Shown here in pieces: positions 7,635 to 43,900 of a DNA stretch of 64,000 nucleotides. The first letter of the stretch is position 1. Every line of letters starts with the position of its first letter. Source of the stretch: Candidatus Kerfeldbacteria bacterium (GTDB taxonomy: Bacteria; Patescibacteriota; Patescibacteriia; SBBC01; CAIJZX01); assembly GCA_016193315.1 (NCBI GenBank), contig JACPSJ010000001.1, positions 535,478 through 599,477 on the forward strand, given 5' to 3'. Below the pieces are notes generated by a model. It was given only the letters and a program-made list of their open reading frames with translations, was not told the DNA's origin and did not search any database. A program made the position numbers and the translations under genes.

Positions 7635-9187
7635 GGCGATCCGAGCGGACGACGGGTTTTCTCGGTGATGACAAAACCCAAGTATTTACCAAACAACATC
7701 CGGCTTTGAGCGTCGAGGGCTGGTACCGACCCAAAAATGATCATCGTCAACGGTAGGAATAGCCACTGACCAATCATCATCACCCACCGGAACCAGCGCA
7801 CGTGCTGCGGCCGAACCGGTAGGATAATAGTGCTCAGAATGGCGGACACAATCAAGCCGACCATAGCCATCGTCATCAGACTTCGCAGCATGGCCGGAGC
7901 ATTTTGGACGATGGCCGAGGTCTGGCCGCTCGCCTCGGCGCCGACGAACGGCAGCCAGCCGAGGAGAAAAATGAGAATCGGCGCCGTCGCCCACGAGTAG
8001 ATCCCCTCCCACTGAATCCAAGTATATTTCACCTTCTGGCGCCAGGGGATAGCCCGGCTCCTGACAAAATTCCAAACGGAGAAAGGAAAATTCTCCACCC
8101 CGCCGTAGGCCCAACGCTGAATCTGTCTGTATTGATTACGGATGCTCAGCCACCAACTGCCACCCTGAACCGTATCCATGGAAATCGGAAGATAGAGCGG
8201 CGTGACCGAGTACTGACCATCGTAATGTAGGAAACATTGAATGAAAATTCGCGAGTCTTCACTCACCAAGTCCGTCTGCCAAAATCCCACGTCAACCAGC
8301 GCCTGGAACGGCATACTGTGTGAAGAAAAGGTAAACAGCCGATCAGGTCTCACGGTTTCGCTGAGTAGCCAGAAAGTGGTGCTGTTCGCTACCACCCGCA
8401 TGAGGAAGAGCGCGTCCCAGATGTTATTGTGAAACACTGGAATCGGCTGATAGCTCGTCCGCCAGCGCTGGGGGTGCTTCAGAAATGTATGGGTCAGATA
8501 ACTGAAGTATTGCGGATGGGCTACGGAATCAGCGTCAAACGTTGAGACCAGAACCTGCGAGTACGGTATCCGGAGACGATCAATTTCGTCCTGCGCCCGC
8601 CGCCCGGCCCAGGCGATATTCGCCCCTTTCGCTGCCAACTCTCCGGGAATATCGGCCGGGTGTTCGACCACCATAAAACGGAAAAACTCGCGTTCATAGC
8701 GGGCTAGCAGCGCGGCGGCGTTCGGTCTGGTGCTGGTGGCGTGGCGGGCTTCGGTGGCCACGACGACCATCAGCCGGTCATGCGGATAATCAACCCGGGC
8801 CAAGGAATCAAAGGTGTTGGTCAGAACGGCCAACGGCTCAACAGACACCGGGACGATCACCAAGTGATAGACCTGACGCCATCCGGGCAGTGGCCGGAGT
8901 CGATCAAACCAGTGGACCTGACTAGCCTGGCGAAACCGGCGGAAAGCCAAAAGGACGTAGACCATGACATAGAGGACACGGACCAACCAATAGACGTCGA
9001 ACACCAGGATGAAAATGATGGCCCACAGCGGAGCGACGAGGGAGACCAGAATGGCAGCTAAGAACGTTAGCCACACTGCCAGGCCAGGCATCATCTCCAA
9101 CATCCGATATTTCGTCCGCGGACTAAGATTCCGCCACCAGATGTTCGCTCTCCAGCGTGGCCGGACCATGGAATTCAAACCTACCAC
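7601..9187 (-). CDS. Membrane GT2 processive beta-glycosyltransferase (cellulose-synthase-like)
   Basis: 528 aa with N- and C-terminal TM helices, D,D,D and Q(R)xRW (RQIQRWAYG) motifs of the CesA/BcsA-like GT2 family. Confidence 0.65.
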   Translation of the reverse strand: MVGLNSMVRPRWRANIWWRNLSPRTKYRMLEMMPGLAVWLTFLAAILVSLVAPLWAIIFILVFDVYWLVRVLYVMVYVLLAFRRFRQASQVHWFDRLRPLPGWRQVYHLVIVPVSVEPLAVLTNTFDSLARVDYPHDRLMVVVATEARHATSTRPNAAALLARYEREFFRFMVVEHPADIPGELAAKGANIAWAGRRAQDEIDRLRIPYSQVLVSTFDADSVAHPQYFSYLTHTFLKHPQRWRTSYQPIPVFHNNIWDALFLMRVVANSTTFWLLSETVRPDRLFTFSSHSMPFQALVDVGFWQTDLVSEDSRIFIQCFLHYDGQYSVTPLYLPISMDTVQGGSWWLSIRNQYRQIQRWAYGGVENFPFSVWNFVRSRAIPWRQKVKYTWIQWEGIYSWATAPILIFLLGWLPFVGAEASGQTSAIVQNAPAMLRSLMTMAMVGLIVSAILSTIILPVRPQHVRWFRWVMMIGQWLFLPLTMIIFGSVPALDAQSRMLFGKYLGFVITEKTRRPLGSPHSSFEPSQPG

Positions 9188-17442: not shown

Positions 17443-19127
17443 TCGCGTCTCAGGCGCCGATACAGCGCTTGATCGCGCTGACGTAGGGCGCGGAGACGAC
17501 GGTCACGCCCGGCGGGTACCGAGAGCAGGTGGCCTAGCCACTGACCGGTCCCGAGGGTCGGAACGAATACATAATCAGCGCCCGCTCGGTAGAGTTGCTG
17601 CGCCTCATCAATCGTCTCGGCCCGCACCACCAGCCGCGGTCGTGCTCGGCTAGGCCGGGCGCGAACCACCGTATTCAGCCAGGTCAGATTGCTGTCGAGG
17701 TCAGGGCTAGTGGAAATTACCAGCGCCGCCGACCGCAGGCTAACGAAATCCTCCAGATCAGGATCAGCTAAGTCACCGTAGACGGCGGCGTAACCCTGTT
17801 GCCGCAGCCGCTTGACGATGGCCGGATCAAAATCGATAATCGCCACCTCCCGCCTTGACAGATGTGCCAGAATGTTTTGCCCGGTGCGATGAGCCCCAAT
17901 CAACACCACCGGGCGACTGAGTCGGCCGCCGTCGACGCGCTCTCGATGGGACCCCGCCGACTCGAACCACCCCAGTCGCTGTCGAACCCAACCATACAGC
18001 CGGTCGGCGTGCACCATGAAGTATGACGAGATGGCAATAGTCGACACACCAACGGCCGTGATGAGCGTCACTTCCGTGCTCGACAGATGGCCAAGCCTGA
18101 ATCCCACGGCGGCCAGTACAAAACTGAATTCGGAGACCTGGGCCAGGCTGAGGCCAGTTAAGAAACTCGTTCGCCGGTGAAAACCTAGGGTGCCCATCAC
18201 CACCATCACGATCACGGGGGTGCCGAAGAGCACAAATAGGGACATCAGCACTATCGGCCACAGCAACTCGCGCAGTGATGACACGGCCAATGACGACCCG
18301 AGCACCACAAAAAATAGCAGTAGAAAAAAATCGCGCAATGGTTTAACCCGCGAACTGATCTGCCAGTGTTCGGCCGAGTTGGCCAAGGCTAGGCCAGCTA
18401 AGAAACCGCCCATCTCCATCGACCAACCAAGTTTCCGGACCGTACTAGCGACCAGGAACACCCACGCCAAGCTGGCTACAAAGAGGAGCTCCGGCGAGCG
18501 GCCAATGCGATCGAGAATCCGGGGCATGATCGACCGGCCAAGCCACAACATCAGCCCAAACAGAATGAGCCCCACCAGCACTGGGTTGGCGATGCTCGCC
18601 AAGCTCAGCGGGTGTCCGGCCCGCCAACCAGCCAGCACCAACAGTATCACGATCGCGACCACATCCTGCAATAGCAAGATACTAATGGTTATCTTGCCGT
18701 AGAGCGACTGTAAATCCTGTTTTTCTGACAGCAACTTAACCACGATGACCGTGCTGGACAGGGTTAACGCCACCGCCAGGTAGGCGGCCGACAGCGGCCC
18801 GAAGCCCAGTAGCAGGGTCAGTAAAAACCCGAGGGCGAAGGTCAAGCCGATTTGCCCCAGGCCAATCACCGCCGCCACCGCGCCGACATGTCGTAAAGCG
18901 GACAGGTTGATCTCCAGACCAACCAGAAACAACAGGAACATGACCCCCAATTCAGCGAACGTGCGGTACAATTCATTGTCCGTAATCGGCGTAAAATAGA
19001 ACAGCCCGATCATCACACCCGTCGTCAGGTAGGCCAAAATGAGCGGCTGGCGGAGAATTCTCGCCAGCAACCCGATGCCAGCAGCCAGGGTGAATAGGAC
19101 GGCCAGTTCTTGAACCGTCATACTCAT
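17433..19127 (-). CDS. CPA2 monovalent cation:proton antiporter with C-terminal RCK/TrkA-N domain (KefB/C-like)
   Basis: 564 aa; about 12 TM N-terminal transporter domain and a C-terminal Rossmann domain (VVLIGAHRTGQNILAHL...IDFD). Confidence 0.75.
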   Translation of the reverse strand: MSMTVQELAVLFTLAAGIGLLARILRQPLILAYLTTGVMIGLFYFTPITDNELYRTFAELGVMFLLFLVGLEINLSALRHVGAVAAVIGLGQIGLTFALGFLLTLLLGFGPLSAAYLAVALTLSSTVIVVKLLSEKQDLQSLYGKITISILLLQDVVAIVILLVLAGWRAGHPLSLASIANPVLVGLILFGLMLWLGRSIMPRILDRIGRSPELLFVASLAWVFLVASTVRKLGWSMEMGGFLAGLALANSAEHWQISSRVKPLRDFFLLLFFVVLGSSLAVSSLRELLWPIVLMSLFVLFGTPVIVMVVMGTLGFHRRTSFLTGLSLAQVSEFSFVLAAVGFRLGHLSSTEVTLITAVGVSTIAISSYFMVHADRLYGWVRQRLGWFESAGSHRERVDGGRLSRPVVLIGAHRTGQNILAHLSRREVAIIDFDPAIVKRLRQQGYAAVYGDLADPDLEDFVSLRSAALVISTSPDLDSNLTWLNTVVRARPSRARPRLVVRAETIDEAQQLYRAGADYVFVPTLGTGQWLGHLLSVPAGRDRRLRALRQRDQALYRRLRREWQ

Positions 19128-20290
19128 GGGCGACTGTTGTCAACTTGAAATGTCAGGCGGTAGATCACCCCCGCCTTGTCGTCGGAAACATAGAGGGCCG
19201 GGCCATGAAATACTAAGTCCACCGGGCGTCCCAATGCTCCGTCCGGCGTCAACCAGCCAGTGGCAAAATCAGCAATTTGTTGCTGGTCGACGTCATACCG
19301 GACTAGCTTGTAGCCAGTGGGGGCGGTTCGGTTCCACGAACCGTGGTAGGCGATCAGCAAATCGCCAACCCAATCGGTGTGCCCAAACCCTGGTGGTACA
19401 AAAGCCAAACCGAGCGGCGCAGAATGGGCCGGGATGTCAACCCGTGACGGCCCGGCCGAGACACACCTGGCGGCCGCGGCGGCCGAGCCGTCAAACCGCC
19501 GATCGTGCACGTTCTGACCGTAACAGAAGGGCCAACCGTAAAACTTCCCAGCCTCGATGATATTGATTTCGTCGGGCGGCAGATCGTCGCCGAGGAAGTC
19601 GCGTCCCATGTCCGTGCCCCAGAGCTGGCCTTCGTGCCAGGTAAAAAAGACAGTGTTCCGCAGGCCGGAAGCAAAGAGCCTAAAGTCCGATCCATCGCGC
19701 TCCATGGTCCAAATTGCGGCTCGGTGGGGGTCGCTTTCTAAGCAGACGTTACAGGTAGACCCAATGGCGACGTACAGACGATGATCTGGGCCAAATCCGA
19801 TAGTCCGGCTAGTGTGGTTTCCGCCAACCGGCAAGTCGATGAGTTTTCGGGGTGGTACATTGCTGCCTATTTCGTATTTCCAAATCGCATTCTCCGCCGC
19901 CACATAGAGATCGTGCGGACGATCCCGATGAAAGGCTAAGCCGTGAGGTTTTGACAATCCTTGGATGACCGCCTGTCGGGCTGACTCGCGCCCATCCTGG
20001 AGCGTCAGTCTCGTGACCTGACCGAGCTTCGGCTGGCTTACCCACAACTGTCCGCCGGCGTCAAAGCGCAGGACCCGCGCGCCATCGAGGCCCTTGGCCA
20101 CGATATCAATCCGAAACCCAGCTGGCAGGGTGAGCGGCATGCCAGTGGTGTTAATGACTTTCGTAATGTCTTGCGGCGGCAGCTTGATCGATGGACCGAC
20201 TCCGCGAAAGTATCGCCAGTAGTAATAACCGCCGACGCCGGCCAAGATGAGAGTAACAACAACTGTAACGATGACTATCTTTTTTTTCAT
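19124..20290 (-). CDS. PQQ-dependent sugar dehydrogenase (soluble glucose/sorbosone dehydrogenase family), membrane-anchored
   Basis: 388 aa; N-terminal TM; beta-propeller SGL-family signatures (HGLAF..DG.LYV, WGTDMGRD, IEAGKFYGWP). Confidence 0.7.
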   Translation of the reverse strand: MKKKIVIVTVVVTLILAGVGGYYYWRYFRGVGPSIKLPPQDITKVINTTGMPLTLPAGFRIDIVAKGLDGARVLRFDAGGQLWVSQPKLGQVTRLTLQDGRESARQAVIQGLSKPHGLAFHRDRPHDLYVAAENAIWKYEIGSNVPPRKLIDLPVGGNHTSRTIGFGPDHRLYVAIGSTCNVCLESDPHRAAIWTMERDGSDFRLFASGLRNTVFFTWHEGQLWGTDMGRDFLGDDLPPDEINIIEAGKFYGWPFCYGQNVHDRRFDGSAAAAARCVSAGPSRVDIPAHSAPLGLAFVPPGFGHTDWVGDLLIAYHGSWNRTAPTGYKLVRYDVDQQQIADFATGWLTPDGALGRPVDLVFHGPALYVSDDKAGVIYRLTFQVDNSRP

Positions 20291-20421
20291 TTCTCTCAGT
20301 ATAGCACACTCCCCTGTTCTACCACCCCAGGAACAAGTAGTTTACAGCCGTTGAAAAAAATCGTGCCGCATGTTACAGTCAGCTCGATCTTCACTCTGCC
20401 CGGTGTTAGTAACGCAGTTGA

Positions 20422-20495
20422 GTGGGAAGTCGTCTAATGGTAGGACACCACCCTTTGGAGGTGGTTATGATGGTTCGAATCCATCCTTCCCAGCC
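20422..20495 (+). tRNA. tRNA-Gln (anticodon TTG), CCA encoded
   Basis: Hand-folded cloverleaf: acceptor TGGGAAG/CTTCCCA, anticodon loop CTTTGGA, T-arm GATGG-TTCGAAT-CCATC, 3' GCCA. Confidence 0.8.
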
Positions 20496-20574
20496 AATTG
20501 CGATACCGCTACGAACCCTACGGTCAGCCCGCTTCACGACCAGCAGTTAAAGTCGACTCGACCACCAAAGGAAT

Positions 20575-21147
20575 TCAAGGACCAGCTTTGGAAGGAAGCG
20601 GCGTGTTAGCCGATATTTTCCGACGGACAAGCAGCAGGAGAAAGAACCCCCCATTGAGTAATATTAAAGAAACAGGCACAAACCATGTCACGAACGAGAA
20701 AGTTTCTAAGGCGATCAGCCCGAATGCCCACTTGAGGGCCGCTAAGGCATACTGACTGGCAGTTTCTTCAAGGGGCTGGTAATAACCTTTCCGATACGTC
20801 GGTACGAACCCCAAAGCATCGGTAATAGTGATGAGGAGAACGGAGGCCGTTGGGTTATTTGATATCCTCCAAAGCGCCATCGCCACCAGCGCCGAGATCA
20901 ACGAAATCCAATCAATCCATACAAACTGACGATTTCCTTTAATCAACGCCAAGACAAAAATGAAAAAGCAAATTACGGTCGTGAGACCGGTTACCCATGA
21001 ACCCGCTCCGGCGCCGCCAACAAGCTGGATAACGAAGGCCATCCCAATGAGTAGCCCCCACACCAGCCACGAGAAAGCGTGAGGTTTGGTGGTACCTCGA
21101 ATTGTATTCCAAACATAAGGAGCATAGCTAACCAGGGTGATAAACAC
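20575..21147 (-). CDS. Polytopic membrane protein of unknown function (GTG start)
   Basis: 190 aa with about 6 hydrophobic helices; no recognisable family. Confidence 0.5.
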   Translation of the reverse strand: MFITLVSYAPYVWNTIRGTTKPHAFSWLVWGLLIGMAFVIQLVGGAGAGSWVTGLTTVICFFIFVLALIKGNRQFVWIDWISLISALVAMALWRISNNPTASVLLITITDALGFVPTYRKGYYQPLEETASQYALAALKWAFGLIALETFSFVTWFVPVSLILLNGGFFLLLLVRRKISANTPLPSKAGP

Positions 21148-21218
21148 ACCGATATAGCCTCATAGAATACGATAATCGTGCCTGAGCCCGCTATGCTGGA
21201 GATGCTAGCCTGGTCTCC

Positions 21219-22136
21219 TTACACCCGCAAATACCGCCCAATCGCAAACAGCGACGACAAGACCGATAGACCGCAGCCGACGACCACTTCCAGGCCGAGG
21301 ATCTGCCACAGGTGTTGCTGGACATAACCAAGGATGTTGACGTCGTAACCGGCGAAAAACTGACTGAAGAATGGGTTGGTGATAGTCAGAATGGGCACAA
21401 AAATAATCGTCGTGAAGAGGCTCGCCAGCAGCCCATAGAGGAGGCTGGTGACGACAAACGGACCGCGGACAAAGGCGTCTGATGCGCCGACCAGCTTCAT
21501 GATGCCGATTTCCTCGCGGTGGGCGTAAATCGTTACCCGGATGGCGTTAAAAACCATCAAGACCGCGATCAGGCCGAATAACAGCGTCAGCCACAACGAG
21601 GCGCCTTGGATGCGGCCGACAATCAGCGTCAACCGGTTAATAACCGTTTGATTCGTTTCAAATTCGCGACCAGTATCTTCAATGATCGTTTCGTACCGGT
21701 CGCTCTGGAGGAAGCGGGCGATGGCGTTGTAACCATCAAGTGTTTTGGCGGTGACGATCAGGCCAGCACCGAGCGGGTTTTCGCCGAGCGCTTCGATGGC
21801 AGCATTAATAAGGTTCGATTGTCCTTGCGACCGGCGGAGCAGTTCGAGTCGTTCGGCCCGACTGATCAGGTCTACCGATTCTACTTCCGGCCGGGCCAGT
21901 AGTTCCTGACGGACGGTCTCGACCCGGTCCTCCGAGGTGGTGGCCGTGAAGTAGACCGACAAATTCACTCGTTCCTTGACGGCCGTTAACGTCTGTTGCC
22001 CGACCACGTTCAGGCCGAGAACGACGCTCATCAGAAAGAGATTCAGGGTGACGATCAAGACAGTCACCAGCGATAACCAAATGTTCCGCCAGAAAGTCTG
22101 AACCCCGAAGACGATCATTCGACCGAGGGTGACCAT
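21219..22136 (-). CDS. ftsX: Cell-division ABC transporter permease FtsX
   Basis: 305 aa; N-terminal TM, large extracytoplasmic domain and 3 C-terminal TM; lies downstream of ftsE. Confidence 0.8.
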   Translation of the reverse strand: MVTLGRMIVFGVQTFWRNIWLSLVTVLIVTLNLFLMSVVLGLNVVGQQTLTAVKERVNLSVYFTATTSEDRVETVRQELLARPEVESVDLISRAERLELLRRSQGQSNLINAAIEALGENPLGAGLIVTAKTLDGYNAIARFLQSDRYETIIEDTGREFETNQTVINRLTLIVGRIQGASLWLTLLFGLIAVLMVFNAIRVTIYAHREEIGIMKLVGASDAFVRGPFVVTSLLYGLLASLFTTIIFVPILTITNPFFSQFFAGYDVNILGYVQQHLWQILGLEVVVGCGLSVLSSLFAIGRYLRV

Positions 22137-22216
22137 GCGGCTAGAGGACTAGTGAATTGACGCCCCGGAGCTGATGAGTCATGTGGCAGAGGTAACGGCG
22201 ACGAACAGACAACTGA

Positions 22217-22897
22217 TTAAAGGAGGTATTTGCCCGATCGCTGATCAGCAATGACGTGGCCGTGATCGAGGGTAATAACTCGCTTTCGCAGCATATTGAC
22301 GATTTCGCGGTTGTGGGTGACCAGGACCACGGTGGTGCCGAACTCGTTGATTTTTTTCAGCAGCGAGATGATTTCCTGGGCATTAATCGTGTCGAGGTTG
22401 CCGGTTGGTTCATCAGCCACCAATAATTTCGGTCGGTGAGCTAAGGCGCGGGCGATGACGACCCGCTGCTGCTCGCCGCCAGACACCTGATCCGGATAAC
22501 GATCTATCTTCTGCTCCAAACCAACGATCTTGAGCAGTTGCGGAACGACGGTCCGGATACTCCGCGTCGATTGACCAGCCACCTCGAGCGCAAAAGCGAC
22601 GTTCTCGAATAGGGATTTCTTCGGCAACAACTTGAAATCTTGAAAGACCACGCCGATTTGGCGCCGGAGGGTCGGCACTTCGTGGTGTTTGATATGCGTA
22701 ATGTCCCAGCCGCCGATGATGATCCGGCCTTTATCGACGCGCTCTTCGGCGATGATCAGTTTGGCCAGCGTCGTTTTGCCCGATCCGGACTGCCCGACGA
22801 CGGAAACAAACTCACCCGGTTCAATATGGATCGAGACGTCCTCCAGGCCGACGTTCTTCTTTTGATAGATTTTTGTAACGTGTTGAAAGGTGACCAC
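22217..22897 (-). CDS. ftsE: Cell-division ATP-binding protein FtsE
   Basis: Walker A GQSGSGKTT, ABC signature VSGGEQQRV and Walker B LLVADEPTGNLD. The start is taken at GTG at 22897 (VVTFQHVTKIY). An in-frame ATG at 22960 is the alternative. The track ORF extends to 23119, overlapping the upstream gene. Confidence 0.75.
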   Translation of the reverse strand: MVTFQHVTKIYQKKNVGLEDVSIHIEPGEFVSVVGQSGSGKTTLAKLIIAEERVDKGRIIIGGWDITHIKHHEVPTLRRQIGVVFQDFKLLPKKSLFENVAFALEVAGQSTRSIRTVVPQLLKIVGLEQKIDRYPDQVSGGEQQRVVIARALAHRPKLLVADEPTGNLDTINAQEIISLLKKINEFGTTVVLVTHNREIVNMLRKRVITLDHGHVIADQRSGKYLL

Positions 22898-22907
22898 GGT
22901 GGACTCG

Positions 22908-24518
22908 TCACGATTCCCAACGGTGGTTGCGAAAGGCCCAGTTGATAACGGCCGCCGCATCGACAAAGCGCTGACGGGAAGAAGCTGAACCCATGATCGC
23001 GACCACCACCTGGCTGCCAGTTGTTCGGTCGGCCGTCCGGATGACATAGGTGTACTTGGCCTCGTCGAGGTAACCGGTCTTGCCGCCGGTAAAAATGAGC
23101 TGACGGTCGACCAGCCCACGGCCGAGCAACCAGTCGGTAGTCGGAATGGTGTGACTAAGGCCGGTGTTCAAAGTTCGGAAGTGATACACTCGGCGGGTGG
23201 TGACATAGCGAATGGGCTCATATTCGTGAAAAACCTGGGCCGCCAAGCGGGCTACTTCCTCGGCGGTTGAGACATTCCCCGGATCAAGGCCAGTGACATC
23301 CACGAACCGGGTTAAGCTTAGACCCCAGGCTTGAGCCTTGTTATTCATCCGCTCGATGAACTGCTCGCGGCTGAGACCAGTGCTGCGCGCCAAAGCGGTG
23401 GCCGCGTTGTTGGCCGAACCAACGAGCATGGCGTAGAACAGATCGCGCAGCTGCATCGTTTCACCGGCGGAAACGCGCAGGTAGCCAAAGGGCGTATCGT
23501 CGGTCGCCTGATACGTAAACGTGGTCCGGAGAGATGGCTTGAGGTCAAGAAACACCGCCGCGGTCATCAGCTTGGTAATACTGGCGATTGGGACTTGATC
23601 GGCGGTCCGATGCCCAGCCAGGAGTTGGCCAGAGATCTGGTCAAAAACTGCGAACGGTCGCGCGGCGATGCTTGGAAATGGCAAGCCGTTATTACCCACG
23701 ACCTTCAGTGGCGGCATGACATCTGCTTTCGACCGGACCGAACTCGTCACCGCGCCGAGGACCTGGGCCGCTCGTGGCGGCCCCACATTCACTCGCGTCA
23801 CCCCCACGTTACTGGTGCCGAGTGCGGCGTAGGCGGACCATGAGAGATCGATAATCCGACCGACCGGTTGACCCCAGCGGGACACGACAGTCACGTCAGC
23901 GGTCCGTCCAGTTTCCAGGCTGCGGACCCGAACCACCGTCCCCAGCGGCCAATCGTTTGAGGCCGCGTGGAATCGCGGGTAACGGCTTGAACAAGCCAGT
24001 CGGCAGTACCAACTGGCCAGACCCTCCTGTTGCTGTCGATCTTCAAGGATGACGTAGAGACCACGAAGTACACGTGTCGTCGCTTGACCAAAGCGGTGGT
24101 CGCGATCGAGGCTGGTGGGGAGCGCGAACCACTGCTGCTGGTCAAGATCGTACACCCAGACTTGACGGATCCAGTAGCTGCTCCCAAACGGTATAGCCAC
24201 GGCCAGTGGTCGCGGCTGGTCGGCTGTGAAGTGCTCGACGCCGTGAATCGACAAAGAATAAACGGCTCCGAGCTGGGCTCGATGATCGGGCAACGACGGC
24301 AGTGGCCCTCTAAAGCGCGCCCAGGTGACATCGGCTGGCCGCGGCAACGTATTGGGGAAGATCCCGGCCCGCGCCCCGTTAGGCAAGGCCAACGTCTTAC
24401 CCCAGCGGATGAGCGACGGATCGAAATGTAGGGTTGTTGACTCGGCGGCCTCGACAACGCCACCAAAGCCGAGCAGCCAAACGCTTGTCAGGGTCAGGCC
24501 GATAAGGTATAGTGGCAA
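22908..24518 (-). CDS. Bitopic cell-wall protein: RlpA-like DPBB domain plus D-alanyl-D-alanine carboxypeptidase (peptidase S11) domain
   Basis: DPBB region ASWYCRL..FHAASNDWPLGTVVRVRSLETGRTADVTVVSRWGQPVGRIIDLSWSAYAALG; PBP motifs SITK (SxxK), SAN (SxN) and KTGY (KTG). Start proposed at TTG at 24518, with AGGAAA 5 nt upstream, giving the TM segment LPLYLIGLTLTSVWLLGFGGVV. The track ORF runs to 25088 only because it reads through tRNA-Gly and the repeats on the opposite strand. Confidence 0.65.
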   Translation of the reverse strand: MPLYLIGLTLTSVWLLGFGGVVEAAESTTLHFDPSLIRWGKTLALPNGARAGIFPNTLPRPADVTWARFRGPLPSLPDHRAQLGAVYSLSIHGVEHFTADQPRPLAVAIPFGSSYWIRQVWVYDLDQQQWFALPTSLDRDHRFGQATTRVLRGLYVILEDRQQQEGLASWYCRLACSSRYPRFHAASNDWPLGTVVRVRSLETGRTADVTVVSRWGQPVGRIIDLSWSAYAALGTSNVGVTRVNVGPPRAAQVLGAVTSSVRSKADVMPPLKVVGNNGLPFPSIAARPFAVFDQISGQLLAGHRTADQVPIASITKLMTAAVFLDLKPSLRTTFTYQATDDTPFGYLRVSAGETMQLRDLFYAMLVGSANNAATALARSTGLSREQFIERMNNKAQAWGLSLTRFVDVTGLDPGNVSTAEEVARLAAQVFHEYEPIRYVTTRRVYHFRTLNTGLSHTIPTTDWLLGRGLVDRQLIFTGGKTGYLDEAKYTYVIRTADRTTGSQVVVAIMGSASSRQRFVDAAAVINWAFRNHRWES

Positions 24519-24536
24519 GCGTTTCCTGATCAGCGG

Positions 24537-24610
24537 GCGGGTATGGTTTAGTGGTAAAACGTGACCTTCCCAAGGTCGAGTCGGGGGTTCGATTCCCCCT
24601 ACCCGCTCCA
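24537..24610 (+). tRNA. tRNA-Gly (anticodon CCC), CCA encoded
   Basis: Acceptor GCGGGTA/TACCCGC, anticodon loop TTCCCAA, T-arm GGGGG-TTCGATT-CCCCC, 3' TCCA. Confidence 0.8.
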
Positions 24611-24644
24611 AATCATTCCCTTCGCCCAGATGAAAAATTGTGGC

Positions 24645-25090
24645 CAACGTTTGTATACTCTGCTTTAAGAATCGAAGGGCAGGAGCGATCCCGCCGAATG
24701 GCGGGAGAGCGTCCGCCGAGCCGCCAGTGGCGGGTCGGCGCTGCCCAGGGACGATTCCCCCTACCCGCTCTGACAAAAACGCGCGAGTCTGATCGTCTGA
24801 AGCCGACGGTGTTTGTATTCGCTGCATAAGGAATCGAACGGGCCGAGCACTTCTGCCAGCGGCCGGAGAGCGCCGACCCAGGCCCGAGTCCCGCCTCGAG
24901 CGGGACGAGTGGTCGATTCCCCCTACCAGCTCCAAAGAGTTTTCACCGGCACGATGAAATGTCAAAACCATTTTTTGAATACCCGACGTTAGGAATCGAA
25001 CCGGGTGAACCCAAAGTGCCTGCCCAAGTGGTAGAGAATGCCGGCTGGTATTCGTCAGTAGTGGCTTGAACTTTGTTTTCGCGCTCATGG
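24645..25090 (+). repeat. Three tandem ~160-nt units, each starting TAAG(G)AATCGAAnGGG and (units 1-2) ending CGATTCCCCCTACCnGCTC (tRNA-Gly 3'-end-like)
   Basis: Direct comparison of 24645-24780, 24822-24934 and 24971-25090. Unit 2 ends TACCAGCTCCA. Unit 3 carries GGAATCGAACCGGG..GAACCCAAAGTGCCTGCC, which resembles the tmRNA 5' region. No protein-coding potential. Confidence 0.5.
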
Positions 25091-25111
25091 GCGTGTTTCA
25101 AGATACCACGC

Positions 25112-25939
25112 TCAGCGGTCCTTGACAAGGAGCGGCCCCACGAACTGGTCGATGCGTCGCCCGAGTTCGGCTCGGAGTCCGGGGTCGCGAACCGGACGGT
25201 GAGTACTGGCCGACAAGACCACCAGCTGGTGTGGCGAGTTAGTCATCCGCTCAGACAGCACGGTCGCGCTCTGGGTAGCTACGTACGGGTCACCTTTGGT
25301 GCTCACGATCAAGGTTGGCACACGAAGCCGTGGTAGGGCCGGCCAGACAAAGGTGGCGATGAACCACTCTGTTTCCAGCAGTCCACCAATTGGCCAGCGG
25401 TCGAGCGACCCAATCTCCCGCATCCGGCGCCGATCCTCTGTGGTCAGGTTTGGTTTGTGATAGTACGGGGTAAACAGCCGGAGCCACCGTAAGCCAAGCC
25501 GTCGGAACCAAACCGCGCCGCGATAGCGGACTGGCGTATTCACCGTCACCACAGCCAACAGCTGTGCTGGAGCGTGGATGGCGTAGTCAATCGCGAGTGA
25601 GCCGCCAAACGAGAAACCCAGCAGCACAATCTGACGGCAACGCTGTTTCAGTAGTCGGGCCGCGGCAAAGACCGAGGCCCGCCAATCGGCGCTGTCGGTA
25701 CCGGCCAAGGTAGTGGGACCGCGTCCATGCCCAGCCACGGTCAAGCCGAGTATACTGTACCCTCGAGCTCGAAGATCGTGGGCCAGTTCACGGTAATCGC
25801 CGATGCTACCGCCGTAGCCGTGGATAATGAGAATCCCGACCGGTCCGGCCGGGAGCCAGAACGGTCGCGCCCCAGCAGACAGCCCGGTTGACTGACGGGC
25901 GATCCATGCGCTAATCTTGTCGCTGGCAGCCGTGTTCAT
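25112..25939 (-). CDS. Alpha/beta hydrolase fold protein
   Basis: 275 aa; HGYGGS oxyanion region and the GFSFGG (GxSxG) nucleophile elbow. Confidence 0.7.
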   Translation of the reverse strand: MNTAASDKISAWIARQSTGLSAGARPFWLPAGPVGILIIHGYGGSIGDYRELAHDLRARGYSILGLTVAGHGRGPTTLAGTDSADWRASVFAAARLLKQRCRQIVLLGFSFGGSLAIDYAIHAPAQLLAVVTVNTPVRYRGAVWFRRLGLRWLRLFTPYYHKPNLTTEDRRRMREIGSLDRWPIGGLLETEWFIATFVWPALPRLRVPTLIVSTKGDPYVATQSATVLSERMTNSPHQLVVLSASTHRPVRDPGLRAELGRRIDQFVGPLLVKDR

Positions 25940-26086
25940 CGCCGTTGAAGCTTCCAGCCAACCTCAGTTGTCAGCTCCACAAGGTCCTCACCATGCTAGT
26001 CCACCGCCGTCAGCCAAACGCATTGCACGTTCGTCGACTGGCCACCCACCTTTAACCAAAACAAATACATTGGTAGACCCGCCCGC

Positions 26087-26273
26087 CCTGGCCTGAGCCC
26101 GCGTAGCTCAGTTGGTAGACCTGCCCGCCAAAGACCGAGCCCATGTAGCTCAACTGGTAGAGCAATCCCTTCGTAAGGGAAAGGTTGTCGGTTCGATTCC
26201 GACCATGGGCTTTTGGCGAGGGCAGGCGGGGCAATGCTTTCGTAAAGCAGAGGTCGTCGGTTCGATCCCGACC
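26087..26273 (+). other. Split tRNA-Thr(CGT)-like gene: 5' half (26087-26110) and 3' half (26221-26273) flank an inserted intact tRNA-Thr
   Basis: 5' half GCCCGCG-TAGCTCAGTTGGTAGAC. 3' half ATGCT-TTCGTAA-AGCAG / GTCGG-TTCGATC-CCGAC / CGCGGGC-T-CCA, whose acceptor strand is exactly complementary to the 5' half. The intervening 110 nt contain inverted repeats (CCTGCCCGCCAAA / TTTGGCGAGGGCAGG) around a complete tRNA-Thr. Confidence 0.45.
26129..26201 (+). tRNA. tRNA-Thr (anticodon CGT), no encoded CCA
   Basis: Acceptor GCCCATG/CATGGGC, D-arm GCTC-AACTGGTA-GAGC, anticodon loop TTCGTAA with CGT at 26162-26164, T-arm GTCGG-TTCGATT-CCGAC. Confidence 0.75.
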
Positions 26274-26327
26274 GCGGGCTCCAGACGAGAGCAGGCAGGA
26301 AGCAAGCCCAGCGGGTCATCAGTCGTT

Positions 26328-27299
26328 TCAAGAGTTCGTCACTCGTCCCGCCCCCCGGTCCCATTGTAAACCCCGCACCCAGACGAACACTCGACGCTCC
26401 TGGAGATAACGTGTAATTGCGGCATCGACTGACGGGGCGGCAATAAAAATCTGCGCCACCCGGACTTCTCGTTCGCCTTCGACTTGACGTTCTCCCAAAA
26501 CGCTGATGATATGCCAGCCAAATTTCGTATGGATCAGATCGCTGGTCTGGCCGACCGGCAAACTCCAGGCCGCATCGTCGATGGCTTCATCCTGCTCGCC
26601 ACGTTTGATAAAGCCGAGGTCACCCCCATTCGGCGCATAGGCGTCCTCGCTATAGGTTTTGGCCAGCTCGGAGAATGACTGCTGACCGGCTTGGACCAGG
26701 GCGAACACGCGTTCCGCTTGGCGGCGTGCGGTCTGATTGAGGCGGTCGTCGAATGACAGTTGCTGACGCAGCTTGTCGCGGGCCACGGCCAGCCGAACGA
26801 CGTGGGCTTTGTACTGGGCCAGCGTCCATCCGTATAGCTTGGCGATAGTCCGGGTGGTGAGTGCCCGATCGCCGGCTTGCAGGATTTGGGCGGTGAAAGC
26901 TTGGTCAACGTCAGAGGTCGAAACTGTTACCCCCCAGCGCTCGAGCAGGGCCAAGGTAGCGGCCTGACGGACGAGCTTATCCAGTGCCGCCTGATCGACG
27001 CGAGCCGCGCCGACACCCGCGGCGCCGTCGGTCGAGCTGGTCGGCACAGCTTGTCGGTAGTGCTCAATCGCCTGACGTTCTTCGAGGAAGGTGTGGATCG
27101 GGATAACCCGCCAGCCGACGGTGGCCGCTGGGAGGGGGGTGTACCGTGTCACGCCAATGGCCAGCTGATCATGCCAGTCAAGACCGTAGACACCCGTGGC
27201 CACCCCGGCCACCCCCAGCAGAATCACCACCACCAGACTGACCAGCACTCGACGCCAACGGTGGATCATGGCGGCTCTCATTTGATCGAGGAAGGTCAT
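26328..27299 (-). CDS. Membrane-anchored PpiC-type (parvulin) peptidyl-prolyl isomerase, PrsA/SurA-like
   Basis: 323 aa; N-terminal TM; C-terminal parvulin motifs (NGGDLGFIKRGE..., FGWHII). Confidence 0.65.
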   Translation of the reverse strand: MTFLDQMRAAMIHRWRRVLVSLVVVILLGVAGVATGVYGLDWHDQLAIGVTRYTPLPAATVGWRVIPIHTFLEERQAIEHYRQAVPTSSTDGAAGVGAARVDQAALDKLVRQAATLALLERWGVTVSTSDVDQAFTAQILQAGDRALTTRTIAKLYGWTLAQYKAHVVRLAVARDKLRQQLSFDDRLNQTARRQAERVFALVQAGQQSFSELAKTYSEDAYAPNGGDLGFIKRGEQDEAIDDAAWSLPVGQTSDLIHTKFGWHIISVLGERQVEGEREVRVAQIFIAAPSVDAAITRYLQERRVFVWVRGLQWDRGAGRVTNS

Positions 27300-27308
27300 G
27301 GATGTATT

Positions 27309-27752
27309 TTACGTTGAAGATGAAGAATTGGGAACGCTTGGCGACCGACCGAAGAAATACTGCCACCACAGCCTGGCGGTCGACACCGGCGAGCGGCTGC
27401 CCCTGGGGGTCGTCGGCAAGCCATTGGTCTTCTCAGCATCCACGTTAACCGTCCCCGGCGGAACGACAATCACCCGCTCACCAGACTTTCGTAAACCGAG
27501 CTTCAGCCGAGCCTCCCGCTCTTGGTACGTTTGGCTCCGAAGATAGGTGATCAGTTCCGCCAGCTGTTCTTGCCGACGCTCTTCGTCGGTCACTTGCTGG
27601 CGCAAGCGTTGGACTTGCTGTCGGACCTGATCAGAACGCGCCGATTCGCGAATGATCGCCACCGTGAAGAGCACCACCAGGCTGCCGCTGACCACGACCA
27701 TCCACCAACTGAGCGTCGGTCGGTCCGGAGGTTGCCACCGCGAGCGACGCAT
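27309..27752 (-). CDS. FtsB/DivIC-like septum formation initiator (TM plus coiled coil)
   Basis: 147 aa; single TM (WWMVVVSGSLVVLFTVAII) followed by a coiled coil (QVRQQVQRLRQQVTDEERRQEQLAELI). Confidence 0.5.
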   Translation of the reverse strand: MRRSRWQPPDRPTLSWWMVVVSGSLVVLFTVAIIRESARSDQVRQQVQRLRQQVTDEERRQEQLAELITYLRSQTYQEREARLKLGLRKSGERVIVVPPGTVNVDAEKTNGLPTTPRGSRSPVSTARLWWQYFFGRSPSVPNSSSST

Positions 27753-28384
27753 TAGGGGCGACTCCTCTGACGGCCAGTCATGGGTCTAGTCGGTGCGGCG
27801 CGGCCGCTGCTGTCTGGGCTGGTTTGTTGCCACTCGATGATCGTCTTAACGAGTTCAGCGGCCGATGGCTGACCGCTTGATCGTTCGGCCGCCGCGCGGC
27901 GCTGGAGATCAGTGATCAACTGCTGGATAGTAACTGGATCCTTCACCCCGGACAGCTCGAGGTTGGTGGTCGTGCCGGCAGTCTGGACCACAATCGAGCC
28001 GAATCGGAAGAGCGTCTGCCACAAGCCGCGGCTAGCGTACCGAACGTCCTGAATTTTGTCATACGCGGCTTCAGCCACGGTCCGTTGAAAAAAACCTTGC
28101 TGGTCGATATCGATGATCCGTTGATTGGTGATGAGCAACACATTCCGCGACCACACATAGAGTGCGCGCAGACCGGACCAGACAGCGATGGCGAGGACGA
28201 CCCCAAAACCGAGCGCCCCCCAACCCCGCCATTGGAACCACCAGGCGAGCAGAAAGAAATCGGCCACCATCAACAAGCCACTGCCGACCAATGGCGGGAC
28301 GAGTGTCAGGGCGTAGGGACGGACGAGTTGGACTAGCTCTTCCCCCTCTTTCAGTTGTTTGCTAAGATAATTATGCCAGGGCAT
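27752..28384 (-). CDS. Membrane-flanked bacterial PH domain protein (bPH_2, YdbS/YdbT-like)
   Basis: 210 aa; two TM helices followed by a PH-like region (VLLITNQRIIDI...). Confidence 0.5.
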   Translation of the reverse strand: MPWHNYLSKQLKEGEELVQLVRPYALTLVPPLVGSGLLMVADFFLLAWWFQWRGWGALGFGVVLAIAVWSGLRALYVWSRNVLLITNQRIIDIDQQGFFQRTVAEAAYDKIQDVRYASRGLWQTLFRFGSIVVQTAGTTTNLELSGVKDPVTIQQLITDLQRRAAAERSSGQPSAAELVKTIIEWQQTSPDSSGRAAPTRPMTGRQRSRP

Positions 28385-43212: not shown

Positions 43213-43261
43213 GACCGTCTACGTACCTCTCGACCAGACCACCGGTAAGCCGAATTCTGTT

Positions 43262-43331
43262 CCCGCACCTTTCTGAGCTCAACACCTGATGGTGATGGTT
43301 GACGTGTGGCCGTTGCTCAGAAAGGTGCGGG
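43262..43331. repeat. Perfect 17-bp inverted repeat CCCGCACCTTTCTGAGC ... GCTCAGAAAGGTGCGGG with 36-nt structured loop
   Basis: Seen directly, between the PGT gene start and the 3' end of rnpB; may act as the rnpB terminator or a protein-binding site. Confidence 0.5.
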
Positions 43332-43369
43332 AGATGATCATCTCTCTTGGAGTGCCATTGCTGACACCC

Positions 43370-43900
43370 TCTAGCGATCTACCCGTCCCGCTGTCAGGCG
43401 GAACCTATACGATCTTGCACCAGAGAGGGTTTGCCCGCCGTCCGGCTCACGCCGGACCGCCGTGCGCTCTGACCGTCACCGCCTTTCGGCGGGATCCCGC
43501 GGTATGCGGGACACGATTTCACCCTTACTCTTTCCACGCCGGCGAAGCCGCGCTGCGATCCCCCGGTTCATTTATGAACCAGAAGACTGGCCAGTGTCGA
43601 CTCGCGAGAAGTGCCTGAATGAATCAAGCGATGGCATGGAAGGAGCGGTATGTTTCTGTTGCACTCTTCGTCCCGCTATATAGCGGGATCCCTGGGCTTG
43701 GCCCCGACGCCCCGCTCACCGGGGGTCGGGATTACTCCCGGTCGCTGTTAGCGACTCTCTGCTTATCCCGACGCGCTTGCGCGGTCGGCATGGTGTTCGG
43801 ACTTTCCTCCCCGATCGCGCTGACGCGCACCGGAGCGATCATCTAGTGGTCTGGAAAGAGGCTCAAACAGCGTACTATAATCGAGGCCCGCTGTCAACCT
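43370..43900 (-). ncRNA. rnpB: RNase P RNA (bacterial type A), ends approximate
   Basis: Minus-strand sequence contains the P4 motif GGGGAGGAAAGTCCG, then GAGTGCAACAGAAACATACCGC, AAGGGTGAAATCGTG and GGTCAGAGCGCACGG, in the order of E. coli M1 RNA; the 5'/3' ends carry a complementary GCGATC. The overlapping plus-strand ORFs are spurious. Confidence 0.7.

Follow-up and report, generated by a model that had tools for sequence, protein, structure and literature searches.

What are the repeated segments that lie directly behind a tRNA-Gly gene of Candidatus Kerfeldbacteria? The window, meaning the whole stretch of DNA that was analysed, comprises 64,000 nt of contig JACPSJ010000001.1 (GCA_016193315.1). 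The original prediction, made from the letters alone, offered three readings: scars of serial integration and excision at an attB site, a tandem family of tRNA-derived small RNAs or, with less weight, part of a permuted ssrA. Only the RNA family is supported by the analysis; the scars and the permuted ssrA are not. With a probability of roughly 0.7 for the explanation as a whole, we propose that two of the segments, units B and C, belong to a family of structured RNAs, here named tRNA-trailer RNAs.

A tandem array in exact register behind tRNA-Gly

Both ARAGORN and Rfam call the tRNA-Gly(CCC) that had been predicted, and repeat units follow it in exact register. The features of the locus are given below, where R1 and R2 are models built on two subtypes of the family, the S-type and the K-type respectively.

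22908..24518, - strand: peptidase S11/DPBB gene, probable true extent (Pfam domains; tRNA overlap of the longer ORF)
24485..24513, + strand: candidate sigma-70-like promoter TTGTCA-17-TATAGT 5' of tRNA-Gly (consensus scan, 10/12 matches)
24537..24610, + strand: tRNA-Gly(CCC), CCA encoded (ARAGORN; Rfam tRNA 68.8 bits)
24611..24663, + strand: spacer 5' of unit B, in exact register with copies at 24773 and 24935
24630-24659, + strand: promoter-like ATGAAA-18-TATACT in the spacer 5' of unit B (consensus scan)
24664..24772, + strand: unit B, putative 'B-type' trailer RNA (fold z = -3.5/-3.65; R1 15.3 bits, E 0.17)
24773..24825, + strand: spacer 5' of unit C, in 162-nt register with the other spacers
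24826..24934, + strand: unit C (winC), putative 'K-type' trailer RNA (R1 28.8 bits, E 5.5e-5; three-way junction core)
24935..24988, + strand: spacer 5' of unit D, the copy closest to the first spacer (61% identity to 24611-24668)
24989..~25111, + strand: unit D, apparently a decayed or truncated third unit (5' motif GGAATCGAAC kept at 24992-25001)

The sequence that recurs in the units is the final 19-22 nt of the tRNA-Gly (from 24587/24590). The tRNA 3'-end block GNNCGATTCCCCCTACCNGCTC is found at 24587, within the tRNA, and again at 24749 and 24911, while a second block, TTTGNATNC..TAAGGAATCGAAC, is found at 24650, 24812 and 24974. Since both sets are spaced start-to-start by exactly 162 + 162 nt, the period is 162 nt and not the ~160 nt first proposed. 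With up to 3 mismatches allowed the window holds 3 occurrences of CGATTCCCCCTACCCGCTC, where chance alone would give 0.02. Each unit is laid out as an AT-richer spacer of 58 nt followed by a GC-rich RNA of ~105 nt, the 3' end of which is a copy of the final 19-22 nt of the tRNA and the 5' end of which, GGAAUCGA, pairs with the T-loop/T-stem portion of that same 3' end. The spacer copies are up to 61% identical in register. The array is not an artefact of assembly, since an independent Logan assembly (L001, SRR12113419), which covers it from within the T-arm of the tRNA (~24583) onward, is identical over the covered part.

Much of the predicted description therefore holds at the level of the letters. 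The units do start with the reverse complement of a T-loop, the motif that pairs with the T-loop/T-stem part of the 3' end; units B and C do end in the tRNA-Gly 3' end, through the blocks at 24749 and 24911; and the terminus quoted for unit C, TACCAGCTCCA, is present. Of the three tandem units claimed, the tandem arrangement stands and a third complete unit does not, there being no tRNA-end block at 25073.

The array also distorts the annotation of its neighbour. An ORF of 726 aa (22908..25088, - strand), whose extension had been suspected to be spurious, overlaps the tRNA-Gly on the opposite strand and has its Pfam domains at aa 354-701, with none before aa 354. Because the ORF crosses the tRNA and the array, and because the domains begin only at aa 354, its first ~190 aa are spurious and represent read-through of the tRNA and array. 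The peptidase gene probably starts at a TTG at ~24518. Gene callers lengthen this ORF by ~190 codons through the array both here and in public relatives. The candidate promoter TTGTCA-17-TATAGT falls within the 5' end of this divergent gene and may serve the tRNA-Gly. In the first spacer the -10 box of ATGAAA-18-TATACT ends 10 nt ahead of the 5' helix strand of unit B, which would suit a promoter for that unit, and a weak terminator-like hairpin lies at 24792-24810, within the spacer of unit C.

Two structured units and a remnant

In unit B the closing helix is formed by GAAUCG (24669-24674) with CGAUUC (24752-24757), and a helix GGGCAG/CUGCCC encloses two hairpins. Its 3' block (24752-24770) is the tRNA-Gly 3' end except that CUG replaces the CCA. 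The match to the S-type model R1, which was trained on other genomes, is weak (15.3 bits, E 0.17). Orthologues of unit B with compensatory changes are seen in L019 and, behind a tRNA-Arg, in L010, with R2 scores of 30.7 and 18 bits respectively. In unit C the closing helix pairs GGAAUCGA (24830-24837) with UCGAUUCC (24913-24920), and the 3' block at 24914-24934, CGATTCCCCCTACCAGCTCCA, has 1 mismatch to the tRNA and keeps the CCA. Unit C scores 28.8 bits (E 5.5e-5) with R1, a model built without it, and R2 gives 102-122 bits for its close relatives in L006, L010, L018 and L020. Judged by these orthologues, B and C represent separate subtypes that are conserved independently of one another in other genomes.

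Neither the K-type nor the B-type units offer a 5' partner for the acceptor 3' strand. The possibility that the spacer supplies one, pairing with the 3' tail as in an acceptor stem, was considered and rejected on reading the sequence, as unit C has only a 4-bp GCUG/CAGC and unit B nothing. The missing partner makes recognition of the end by tRNA-processing enzymes hard to explain.

Unit D has no closing helix and no fourth tRNA-end block, including at the expected position 25073, though a possible degenerate end, GTTTCAAGATACCACGCTCA, lies at ~25094-25113. Its fold z is -0.9 to +0.5. We rejected unit D both as a member of the family and as the start of a tmRNA coding piece, as there is no fold signal and R2 gives 0.9 bits with filters off. 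From its sequence, it is a decayed remnant that retains the spacer and 5' motif only.

A family of structured RNAs in Patescibacteria

The family was detected only in Patescibacteria, namely in Kerfeld-, Yanofsky- and Saccharibacteria and other members of the phylum; all of the genome matches (5/5) are of this origin and a further 4 matches come from metagenomes. The consensus fold is a three-way junction with many compensatory base changes. In the S-type alignment 89% of cells are paired, compared with 43-48% when the partners are slid, and double changes occur in 19 of the 44 pairs against 1-8 in the slid controls. For the K-type alignment 87% are paired (30-49% in slid controls), with double changes in 9/32 pairs. 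Detection is also reciprocal: R1 finds unit C (E 5.5e-5) and other K-type units, while R2 finds L018 and L020, on which it was not trained, at 102 bits and the S-type units at 24-37 bits. It is this combination of conserved structure, covarying helices and reciprocal detection by the models that supports the suggestion of a tandem tRNA-derived small RNA family.

The evidence for the closing helix, P1, needs to be read with the search in mind. In 9 loci the search pattern itself dictated P1 and the 14 nt that open the tRNA-end block, so that their invariance in those loci is not evidence; loci fetched through synteny are free of this DNA-pattern bias. Support for P1 from covariation comes chiefly from one tRNA-Arg example and one G.U pair. 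The latter arises in L018, which carries GGGAUCGA, and works on the + strand only. Reverse-strand scores with R1 are also ~28-30 bits, and counts of G.U versus A.C give no clear discrimination between the strands.

The units are nearly always just 3' of a tRNA-Gly gene and on the same strand. An upstream tRNA-Gly is visible in 10 loci (two of them contig starts, with the 3' end only), always in the orientation of the unit; L008, L013 and L019 either have no tRNA ahead of the unit or have it off the contig. The synteny of the tRNA-Gly gene studied here is shared with relatives L003, L004, L005, L016, L018 and L020, and in loci fetched through synteny the number of units at this position is 0, 1, 2 or more, or 3. 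The unit is missing from the site in 3/8 syntenic genomes, so it is dispensable there or located elsewhere. Our reading of the sequences places GC-rich hairpins between A- and T-runs after the units in L007, L008, L011 and L013. In L007, L011 and L014 a terminator-like hairpin stands between the tRNA and the unit, making co-transcription doubtful in these cases. A simple scanner found no consistent promoter across the genomes and few terminators around the units, in part because the T-runs are absorbed into the stems of the A/T-flanked hairpins.

Searches of Rfam with the region at E<=10, with the entire window and with five related loci returned tRNAs and RNase P RNA only, and a search of the literature for a described tRNA-like or trailer RNA of the candidate phyla radiation (CPR), to which this bacterium belongs, gave nothing relevant. 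If this is a real family of RNA genes it is absent from Rfam 15, and would thus represent an uncatalogued structured non-coding RNA conserved across several lineages of Patescibacteria. The genomes of Patescibacteria are small and, to our knowledge, few non-coding RNAs are known in them.

Unit ends follow the neighbouring tRNA

Units B and C both have a closing helix and a tail that copies the acceptor strand of the adjacent tRNA. In L010, also from Kerfeldbacteria, a B-type unit behind tRNA-Arg(TCG) ends in the tRNA-Arg 3' end and begins with the complementary GAGGGACGAG, while its interior resembles unit B, with compensatory changes in P2 and the hairpin. As this unit bears both the 3' end of tRNA-Arg and the matching 5' strand, the ends of the units track the adjacent tRNA. 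L019 has a variant tail, CCCCTTACCC; its own tRNA-Gly is off the end of the contig and the variant is visible only in the tRNA of the related L016.

Given that the tail matches a specific adjacent tRNA (Gly or Arg), a role as a tRNA-specific mimic or decoy is possible. One could go further and imagine a modular class of 'tRNA-end-matched' RNAs, in which a portable structured core carries a 3' tail identical to the acceptor strand and CCA of a single tRNA, along with a 5' strand that co-evolves with its T-arm, and acts specifically on that cognate tRNA or in its stead, though we regard this extension as speculative and rather unlikely. Such an RNA might divert, as a decoy, an enzyme, toxin or phage factor that recognises the tRNA 3' end; it might regulate maturation or charging of the cognate tRNA; or it might be a hairpin precursor of a tRF-3-like fragment. 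Were it true, the RtT repeats of E. coli, discussed below, would show the same principle in enterobacteria, reached by convergent evolution.

Alternative explanations

The best surviving alternative, though quite unlikely in our view, is that the tRNA-Gly and its flank were copied by slippage or unequal crossing-over and that the copies are dying, non-functional pseudogenes. The exact 162-nt period and the homologous spacers would fit such an origin, as would the degenerate unit D and the loss of CCA from unit B, and a partial match to the TAAGGAATCG block can be read, in register, ahead of the true tRNA. Decay does not account for the orthologues of B and C elsewhere, which keep their structure through compensatory substitutions, nor for the conservation of S-type relatives in several lineages of Patescibacteria, and there is no residual tRNA cloverleaf in the interiors of the units.

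It is very unlikely that the units are mobile DNA, that is MITE-like or ssDNA-hairpin elements that insert beside tRNA genes through terminal inverted repeats derived from the T-arm, with the structure being needed at the DNA level. The perfect 15-bp inverted repeat of L007 (GGGTAGGGGGAATCG...CGATTCCCCCTACCC), the patchy distribution and the R1 scores of ~28-30 bits on the reverse strand are all compatible with this. Against it, the units lie only directly 3' of tRNA genes, where these are visible, and always in the orientation of the tRNA; no dispersed copies are found in the 64-kb window or the other loci; the encoded CCA and downstream hairpins suit an RNA gene; and only the + strand accommodates the G.U pair that L018 has in P1.

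In an att-site ladder the tRNA-Gly 3'-end repeats would be attL/attR scars and the ~140 nt between them the remnants of element arms. The direct repeats do run from within the T-loop as far as the 3' end of the tRNA, a span seen at many tRNA att sites, and a single syntenic site may have or lack units, which also build up in tandem. Between the repeats, however, lies a conserved structure of RNA type that shows compensatory changes in several lineages of Patescibacteria, which largely refutes this reading, and the 5' end of the unit co-varies with the tRNA end. In addition the length of the units is held at ~104 nt, the final unit is without the attR that the model demands, no integrase was found among the 9 large ORFs scanned at 19124-28384, and the motif pair gave 0 matches in 2.9 million viral contigs. 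The serial scars that had been suggested are accordingly highly improbable.

The chance of a permuted or two-piece tmRNA, in which the tRNA-like 3' ends would be acceptor pieces and unit D would begin the coding piece, is close to negligible: ARAGORN finds none at default or -ps95, the permuted tmRNA that it reports at -ps80 (24517-24920, tag ...VFVFAA*) is gone at -ps90 and is noise among 46 such calls per 64 kb, the sole match to the Rfam tmRNA families is to the T-loop, at 13 bits (E 7), an intact T-arm and a correctly ordered 5' acceptor strand are both lacking, the supposed coding piece would overlap a conserved hydrolase gene, nothing is found at this site in relatives L003, L004 and L016, and single units elsewhere precede unrelated sequence. 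What had pointed to tmRNA was the start of unit D, where GGAAUCGAAC and then GAACCCAAAGUGCCUGCC resemble the 5' segment of E. coli tmRNA, and the complementarity of GCUGGUA (25043-25049) to UACCAGC of unit C, which is probably due to chance. Unit D does contain the predicted GGAATCGAACCGGGTGAACCCAAAGTGCCTGCC, yet its 'tmRNA-like' character gains no support from ARAGORN or Rfam.

A model for the trailer RNAs

Returning to the RNA family, we envisage a ~105-nt RNA in which the P1 5' strand, GGAAUCGA, complements the 3' half of the T-loop and the 3' strand of the T-stem. P1 closes a GC-rich core, a three-way junction bearing two hairpin arms, and leaves 11-14 nt single-stranded at the 3' end. This tail corresponds to the acceptor 3' strand of the adjacent tRNA together with its discriminator and CCA. 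The units may be transcribed in the direction of the tRNA, from weak promoters of their own or by read-through from the tRNA promoter, and the copied tRNA end would supply a tRNA-type 3' terminus that could then be matured. By analogy with E. coli RttR, P1 and the junction may yield a stable RNA. The 19-22-nt tRNA-end repeats could also be substrates for unequal homologous recombination, which would explain why the period is exactly 162 nt, why the array ends in a partial unit and why related genomes have gained or lost units. Transcription, 3' maturation, recombination and function are all deduced here from sequence.

Comparison with known systems

Two types of array were examined and rejected. 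An integron attC array is expected to combine an IntI integrase with conserved boxes, GTTRRRY for R' and RYYYAAC for R''; the 3' blocks of the units read GGTCGAT, GGACGAT or GGGCGAT, with no conserved GTT, and the neighbours include no integrase. A TIGR-Tas (PMC12045711) or CRISPR guide array would have short repeat-spacer units beside a Tas (Nop-domain) or Cas protein; here the units are of 162 nt with a structured core of 105 nt, and there is no Tas or Cas in the 9 large flanking ORFs scanned.

The array resembles tRNA att sites, and CIME-like accretion at them, in its direct tRNA 3' repeats starting from the T-loop and in being tandem and variable among strains. It differs in that the 'element' is of ~140 nt and encodes only a covarying RNA structure, with no nearby integrase and no viral copies. 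The likeness to the tRNA-like domain of tmRNA lies in the tRNA-like acceptor strand and CCA at the end of the unit, in a GGAUUCGAC-like motif near the 5' end, and in the 5' strand of L008, which pairs with the acceptor strand. The units are nevertheless of ~105 nt, without an intact T-arm, an mRNA-like region or pseudoknots, and their acceptor is of the Gly type rather than G3.U70. Small RNAs of the 3'ETS-leuZ type are released from the trailers of tRNA operons, and the small RNAs proposed here would likewise belong to a tRNA transcription unit, being encoded in its trailer; we know of no copied tRNA 3' end or tandem array in such trailers.

The closest counterparts are the RtT repeats of E. 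coli. These belong to the tyrT-tyrV operon and include the RttR sRNA (RF00391) (Bosl & Kersten 1991, cited in PMC3318445); PMC3318445 also cites the E. coli experiment on their release as a stable RNA from the tRNA operon transcript. In E. coli, which we used as a control, three 178-nt repeats follow tyrV, each closing with the final 19 nt of tRNA-Tyr and having the terminus AATCCTTCCCCCACCACCA, and the annotated RttR ends exactly at the CCA of the first repeat. Its fold has a closing helix of GGGGAAGGAU with AUCCUUCCCC, the same as in the CPR units. Both systems are directly 3' of a tRNA gene, on the same strand and in tandem, with ~3 units each (178 nt in E. coli and 162 nt here); in both the units close with the final ~19 nt of the tRNA, from T-loop to CCA (unit B being without CCA), and a helix closed by the T-loop/T-stem complement surrounds GC-rich hairpins, leaving the acceptor strand and CCA as a tail. 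The CPR K-type model weakly matches 4/4 RtT copies, at 5-10 bits, with ends <=3 nt from the 3' end of the repeat. On the other hand, the tRNA is tRNA-Gly or tRNA-Arg here instead of tRNA-Tyr, and the phylum is another one; several lineages of Patescibacteria have the CPR core in common, as a conserved three-way junction; where the E. coli repeats are 95% identical, this array consists of old subtypes that have diverged; and there is no tpr-like ORF. The RtT covariance model (gathering score 45 bits) finds nothing in 24300-26500 at E<=10 or in L006-L010 at E<=1, and detects its own repeats in E. coli four times, at 133-137 bits. As the architecture matches and the Rfam RtT model does not, the CPR units are an analogue of RtT and not a member of it.

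The RtT architecture, a copied tRNA 3' end on a helix-closed RNA in tandem, is thus reproduced in a distant phylum with other tRNAs. What RtT does has, as far as we know, been unclear since it was first described. A further instance of the design, both independent and more diverse, gives comparative leverage on which of its parts are constrained, and suggests a general route by which tRNA genes may spawn new RNAs.

The tandem array behind tRNA-Gly(CCC)

A unit of the array consists of an AT-richer spacer and a GC-rich predicted RNA of ~105 nt closed by a helix, P1, the 5′ strand of which pairs with the T-loop/T-stem part of a copied tRNA end.

24537-24610 (+), tRNA-Gly(CCC), called by ARAGORN and matched by the Rfam tRNA model at 68.8 bits
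24664-24772, unit B
24826-24934, unit C
24989-~25111, unit D

The tRNA 3′-end block GNNCGATTCCCCCTACCNGCTC was located three times by the repeat finder, at 24587 (within the tRNA), 24749 and 24911, as was the block TTTGNATNC...TAAGGAATCGAAC, at 24650, 24812 and 24974; the start-to-start spacing of both blocks is exactly 162 and 162 nt. The 19-mer CGATTCCCCCTACCCGCTC occurs three times in the window with up to three mismatches, against an expectation of 0.02. When the 162-nt units were compared without gaps, the tRNA-end block was near-identical, identity was ~75% over the ~35 nt up to GGAATCGAAC and 40–61% in the spacer, and in the GC-rich interior of ~68 nt units B and C were no more alike than expected by chance. 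No fourth tRNA-end block was found in the array in this comparison. An independent Logan assembly from another run (SRR12113419) is identical to the window array over the part it covers, from inside the tRNA T-arm onward, which rules out an artefact of assembly.

As the original prediction had held, the upstream gene is spuriously inflated: a 726-aa minus-strand ORF (22908..25088) crosses the tRNA and the array, with the Pfam domains DPBB_1 and Peptidase_S11 beginning only at residue 354. Public peptidase gene calls in four of the comparison loci (L003, L004, L016 and L018) also extend over tRNA-Gly. The neighbouring FtsE ORF, 22217-23119 (-), encodes 300 aa, compared with 226 aa for FtsE in relatives; the additional N-terminal stretch overlaps the peptidase gene at its 3′ end, and the actual start of FtsE probably lies further downstream.

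Conserved structure of the units

The pattern GGAATCGAAC-N55-85-CGATTCCCCCTACC, run in one scan over 185,579 species genomes, returned five loci, all from Patescibacteria (two Kerfeldbacteria, one Yanofskybacteria, one Saccharibacteria and one unclassified). Metagenomes gave four further loci and the scan of viral contigs none. In the nine loci retrieved in this way the pattern preset P1 and a stretch of the tail but left the interiors free, yet the interiors are alike in sequence and structure. In an alignment of the five S-type sequences (L007, L008, L011, L013 and L014), RNAalifold predicted a three-way junction closed by P1 and bearing two arms; of its 44 pairs, 19 show compensatory double changes (1–8 in slid controls). 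Here 89% of cells were paired, compared with 43–48% for slid partners, and the observed covariation was reached by none of 500 shuffles. The K-type alignment, of unit C (a typical K-type unit), L006, L009, L010 and unit B, has the same topology, with 32 pairs, double changes in nine, and 87% of cells paired against 30–49% with slid partners.

R1, a covariance model made from the S-type sequences alone, detected unit C (28.8 bits, E 5.5e-5) and every other K-type unit, while its match to unit B was weak (15.3 bits, E 0.17). R2, made from the K-type alignment, detected L018 and L020, both outside its training set, at 102 bits, the S-type units at 24–37 bits and a partial unit in L019 at 30.7 bits. 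No Rfam family matched any unit in the window region or in five related loci. The orientation of the unit is that of the adjacent tRNA in every case, and GC-rich hairpins flanked by A- and T-runs, read from the sequence, follow the units in L007, L008, L011 and L013, only some of them flagged by a simple scanner. The units share a conserved, covarying RNA-type structure, which speaks against integration scars.

Unit gain and loss at a conserved site

The alpha/beta hydrolase flanking the array is 100% identical to a Candidatus Kerfeldbacteria MAG protein, and the gene order PpiC - tRNA-Thr(CGT) - hydrolase - tRNA-Gly(CCC) - peptidase S11 - FtsE - FtsX - tRNA-Gln is kept in relatives. These were retrieved through homologues of the hydrolase protein, and the unit counts are thus free of DNA-pattern bias.

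Units counted in the hydrolase/tRNA-Gly interval
L003, L004 and L016/L017: 0 units
L005 (genome shared with L009), L018 and L020: 1 unit
L019: at least 2 units
Window: 2 intact units and 1 remnant

The tRNA-Gly is ancestral at the hydrolase/peptidase site, and units have been gained and lost there.

The second unit of L019 (3290-3560, -), behind its B-type unit, is much longer (~185 nt), with GAATCGAAG at its start, GGATTCCC in its middle and GGCCCTTACCCACTCCA at its end; this could be one more subtype, or a copy in decay. In L011 (1-240) and L014 (5677-5770), tRNA-Gly and the unit are separated by long A/T-flanked hairpins. L011 has another after its unit; its two hairpins are alike and the sequence past the second resembles a unit start, which gives the layout of one unit plus a partial unit again.

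Unit ends follow the neighbouring tRNA

The interior of unit B is distinct, with a helix GGGCAG/CUGCCC around two hairpins (fold z = -3.65). Its orthologues are the first unit of L019, where the hairpin UUGCC-AGU-GGCAA stands in place of CCGCC-AGU-GGCGG in the window, and the following unit:

L010 1015-1132 (+), in another Kerfeldbacteria genome: B-type unit behind tRNA-Arg(TCG), at a distance of 36 nt

The 3′ end of this L010 unit, CTCGAGTCCCTCCGGGCGCACCA, matches the tRNA-Arg 3′ end at 16 of 16 positions, and its 5′ end, GAGGGACGAG, pairs with the copied tRNA-Arg end. Where the neighbouring tRNA is a different one, the closing helix and the 3′ tail thus switch with it. The interior retains the layout of the B type, and its helices carry compensatory changes (GGGUUGC/GCAACCC, CGACG/CGUCG and UUGCC/GGCAA). 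This L010 genome also carries a K-type unit, at 7746-7854, behind tRNA-Gly(TCC). The covariation of P1 rests on this single tRNA-Arg example and on one G.U pair, produced on the unit (+) strand by the 5′ strand GGGAUCGA of L018.

In L003 (4600-4680, -) a near copy of the tRNA-Gln(TTG) 3′ end (ATCTATGTCCCGGAGC, two mismatches) lies 55 nt downstream of tRNA-Gln, with a short complementary stretch, CAUAG, upstream of the copy. The arrangement could be the trailer-unit design in miniature; no comparable copy was found behind the window's own tRNA-Gln.

Alternative explanations

Units B and C are not explained by pseudogene decay alone, as each has orthologues with the structure preserved. Decay does account for unit D, a remnant that retains the spacer and GGAATCGAAC only, without a closing helix; its fold is non-significant (z = -0.9), and R2, run with filters off, gives it 0.9 bits. 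A mobile element acting at the DNA level is unlikely, as copies were seen behind tRNAs only and in a single orientation. Serial integration and excision at a tRNA-Gly attB, as originally proposed, fails against the covarying interiors, the lack of an integrase among the nine large flanking ORFs scanned, the lack of copies in viral contigs and the missing terminal repeat. The suggestion of a permuted ssrA also falls, since every tmRNA detector was negative in the window and the relaxed ARAGORN call was one of 46 there.

Other features of the window

An intact tRNA-Thr(CGT), 26138-26212, is nested in a second tRNA-Thr(CGT) that is split in two (26069-26296), with the 5′ piece GCCCGCGTAGCTCAGTTGGTAGA at 26097-26119 and the 3′ piece at ~26232-26283, ending CGCGGGCTCCA. 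The acceptor strands of the pieces are complementary and ARAGORN calls a tRNA-Thr once they are joined. The tRNA-Thr of most relatives matches the split copy at 69/76 positions and the intact copy at 59/77, while that of L019 resembles the intact copy. TRF periods at the cluster are 42 and 69 nt, their sum, 111, being the insert length. The arrangement may have arisen by nested insertion or by duplication-deletion. A 122-aa ORF crossing the cluster, 25996-26364 (-), is likely spurious. The bacterial class A RNase P RNA at 43230-43854 (-) scores 140.5 bits and spans 625 nt against 367 model positions, so it holds at least one large insertion.

Proposed mechanism

The units would be transcribed from the + strand. 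A candidate promoter, ATGAAA-18-TATACT, lies ahead of unit B, spaced for a start at the closing helix; a simple scanner found no consistent promoter at the units in other genomes. Alternatively, transcription may read through from the strong tRNA promoter, TTGTCA-17-TATAGT. The RNA would end at the tRNA-type terminus and be stabilised by P1 and the junction. Units may be created and lost by unequal recombination between the 19–22-nt repeats, which would account both for a period of exactly 162 nt and for the partial unit that ends the array. The tail is identical to the end of the neighbouring tRNA, and simple 3′-end processing does not explain this match to a particular tRNA; the tail may evolve in concert with the adjacent gene, or the RNA may act as a mimic or decoy specific to that tRNA.

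Comparison with E. coli RtT/RttR

The E. coli tyrT locus contains about three repeats of 178 bp, each with the tRNA-Tyr 3′ end. In NC_000913.3 three 178-nt repeats lie behind tyrV, each ending AATCCTTCCCCCACCACCA, the last 19 nt of tRNA-Tyr. The annotated 171-nt sRNA RttR begins 7 nt past tyrV, has its 3′ end exactly at the CCA of the repeat, and folds into GC-rich hairpins enclosed by a closing helix, GGGGAAGGAU/AUCCUUCCCC, with an 8-nt tail, the same design as that of the patescibacterial units. Rfam RF00391 gave four matches at the E. coli locus (133–137 bits) and none in the window or in five patescibacterial loci. R2 gave weak full-length matches, on the right strand, to each of the four RtT copies (5–10 bits, E 0.04–0.7 in a 2.4-kb search), stopping 3 nt short of the CCA end of each repeat. 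We read the relationship of the patescibacterial units to RtT as one not of membership, but of analogous architecture.
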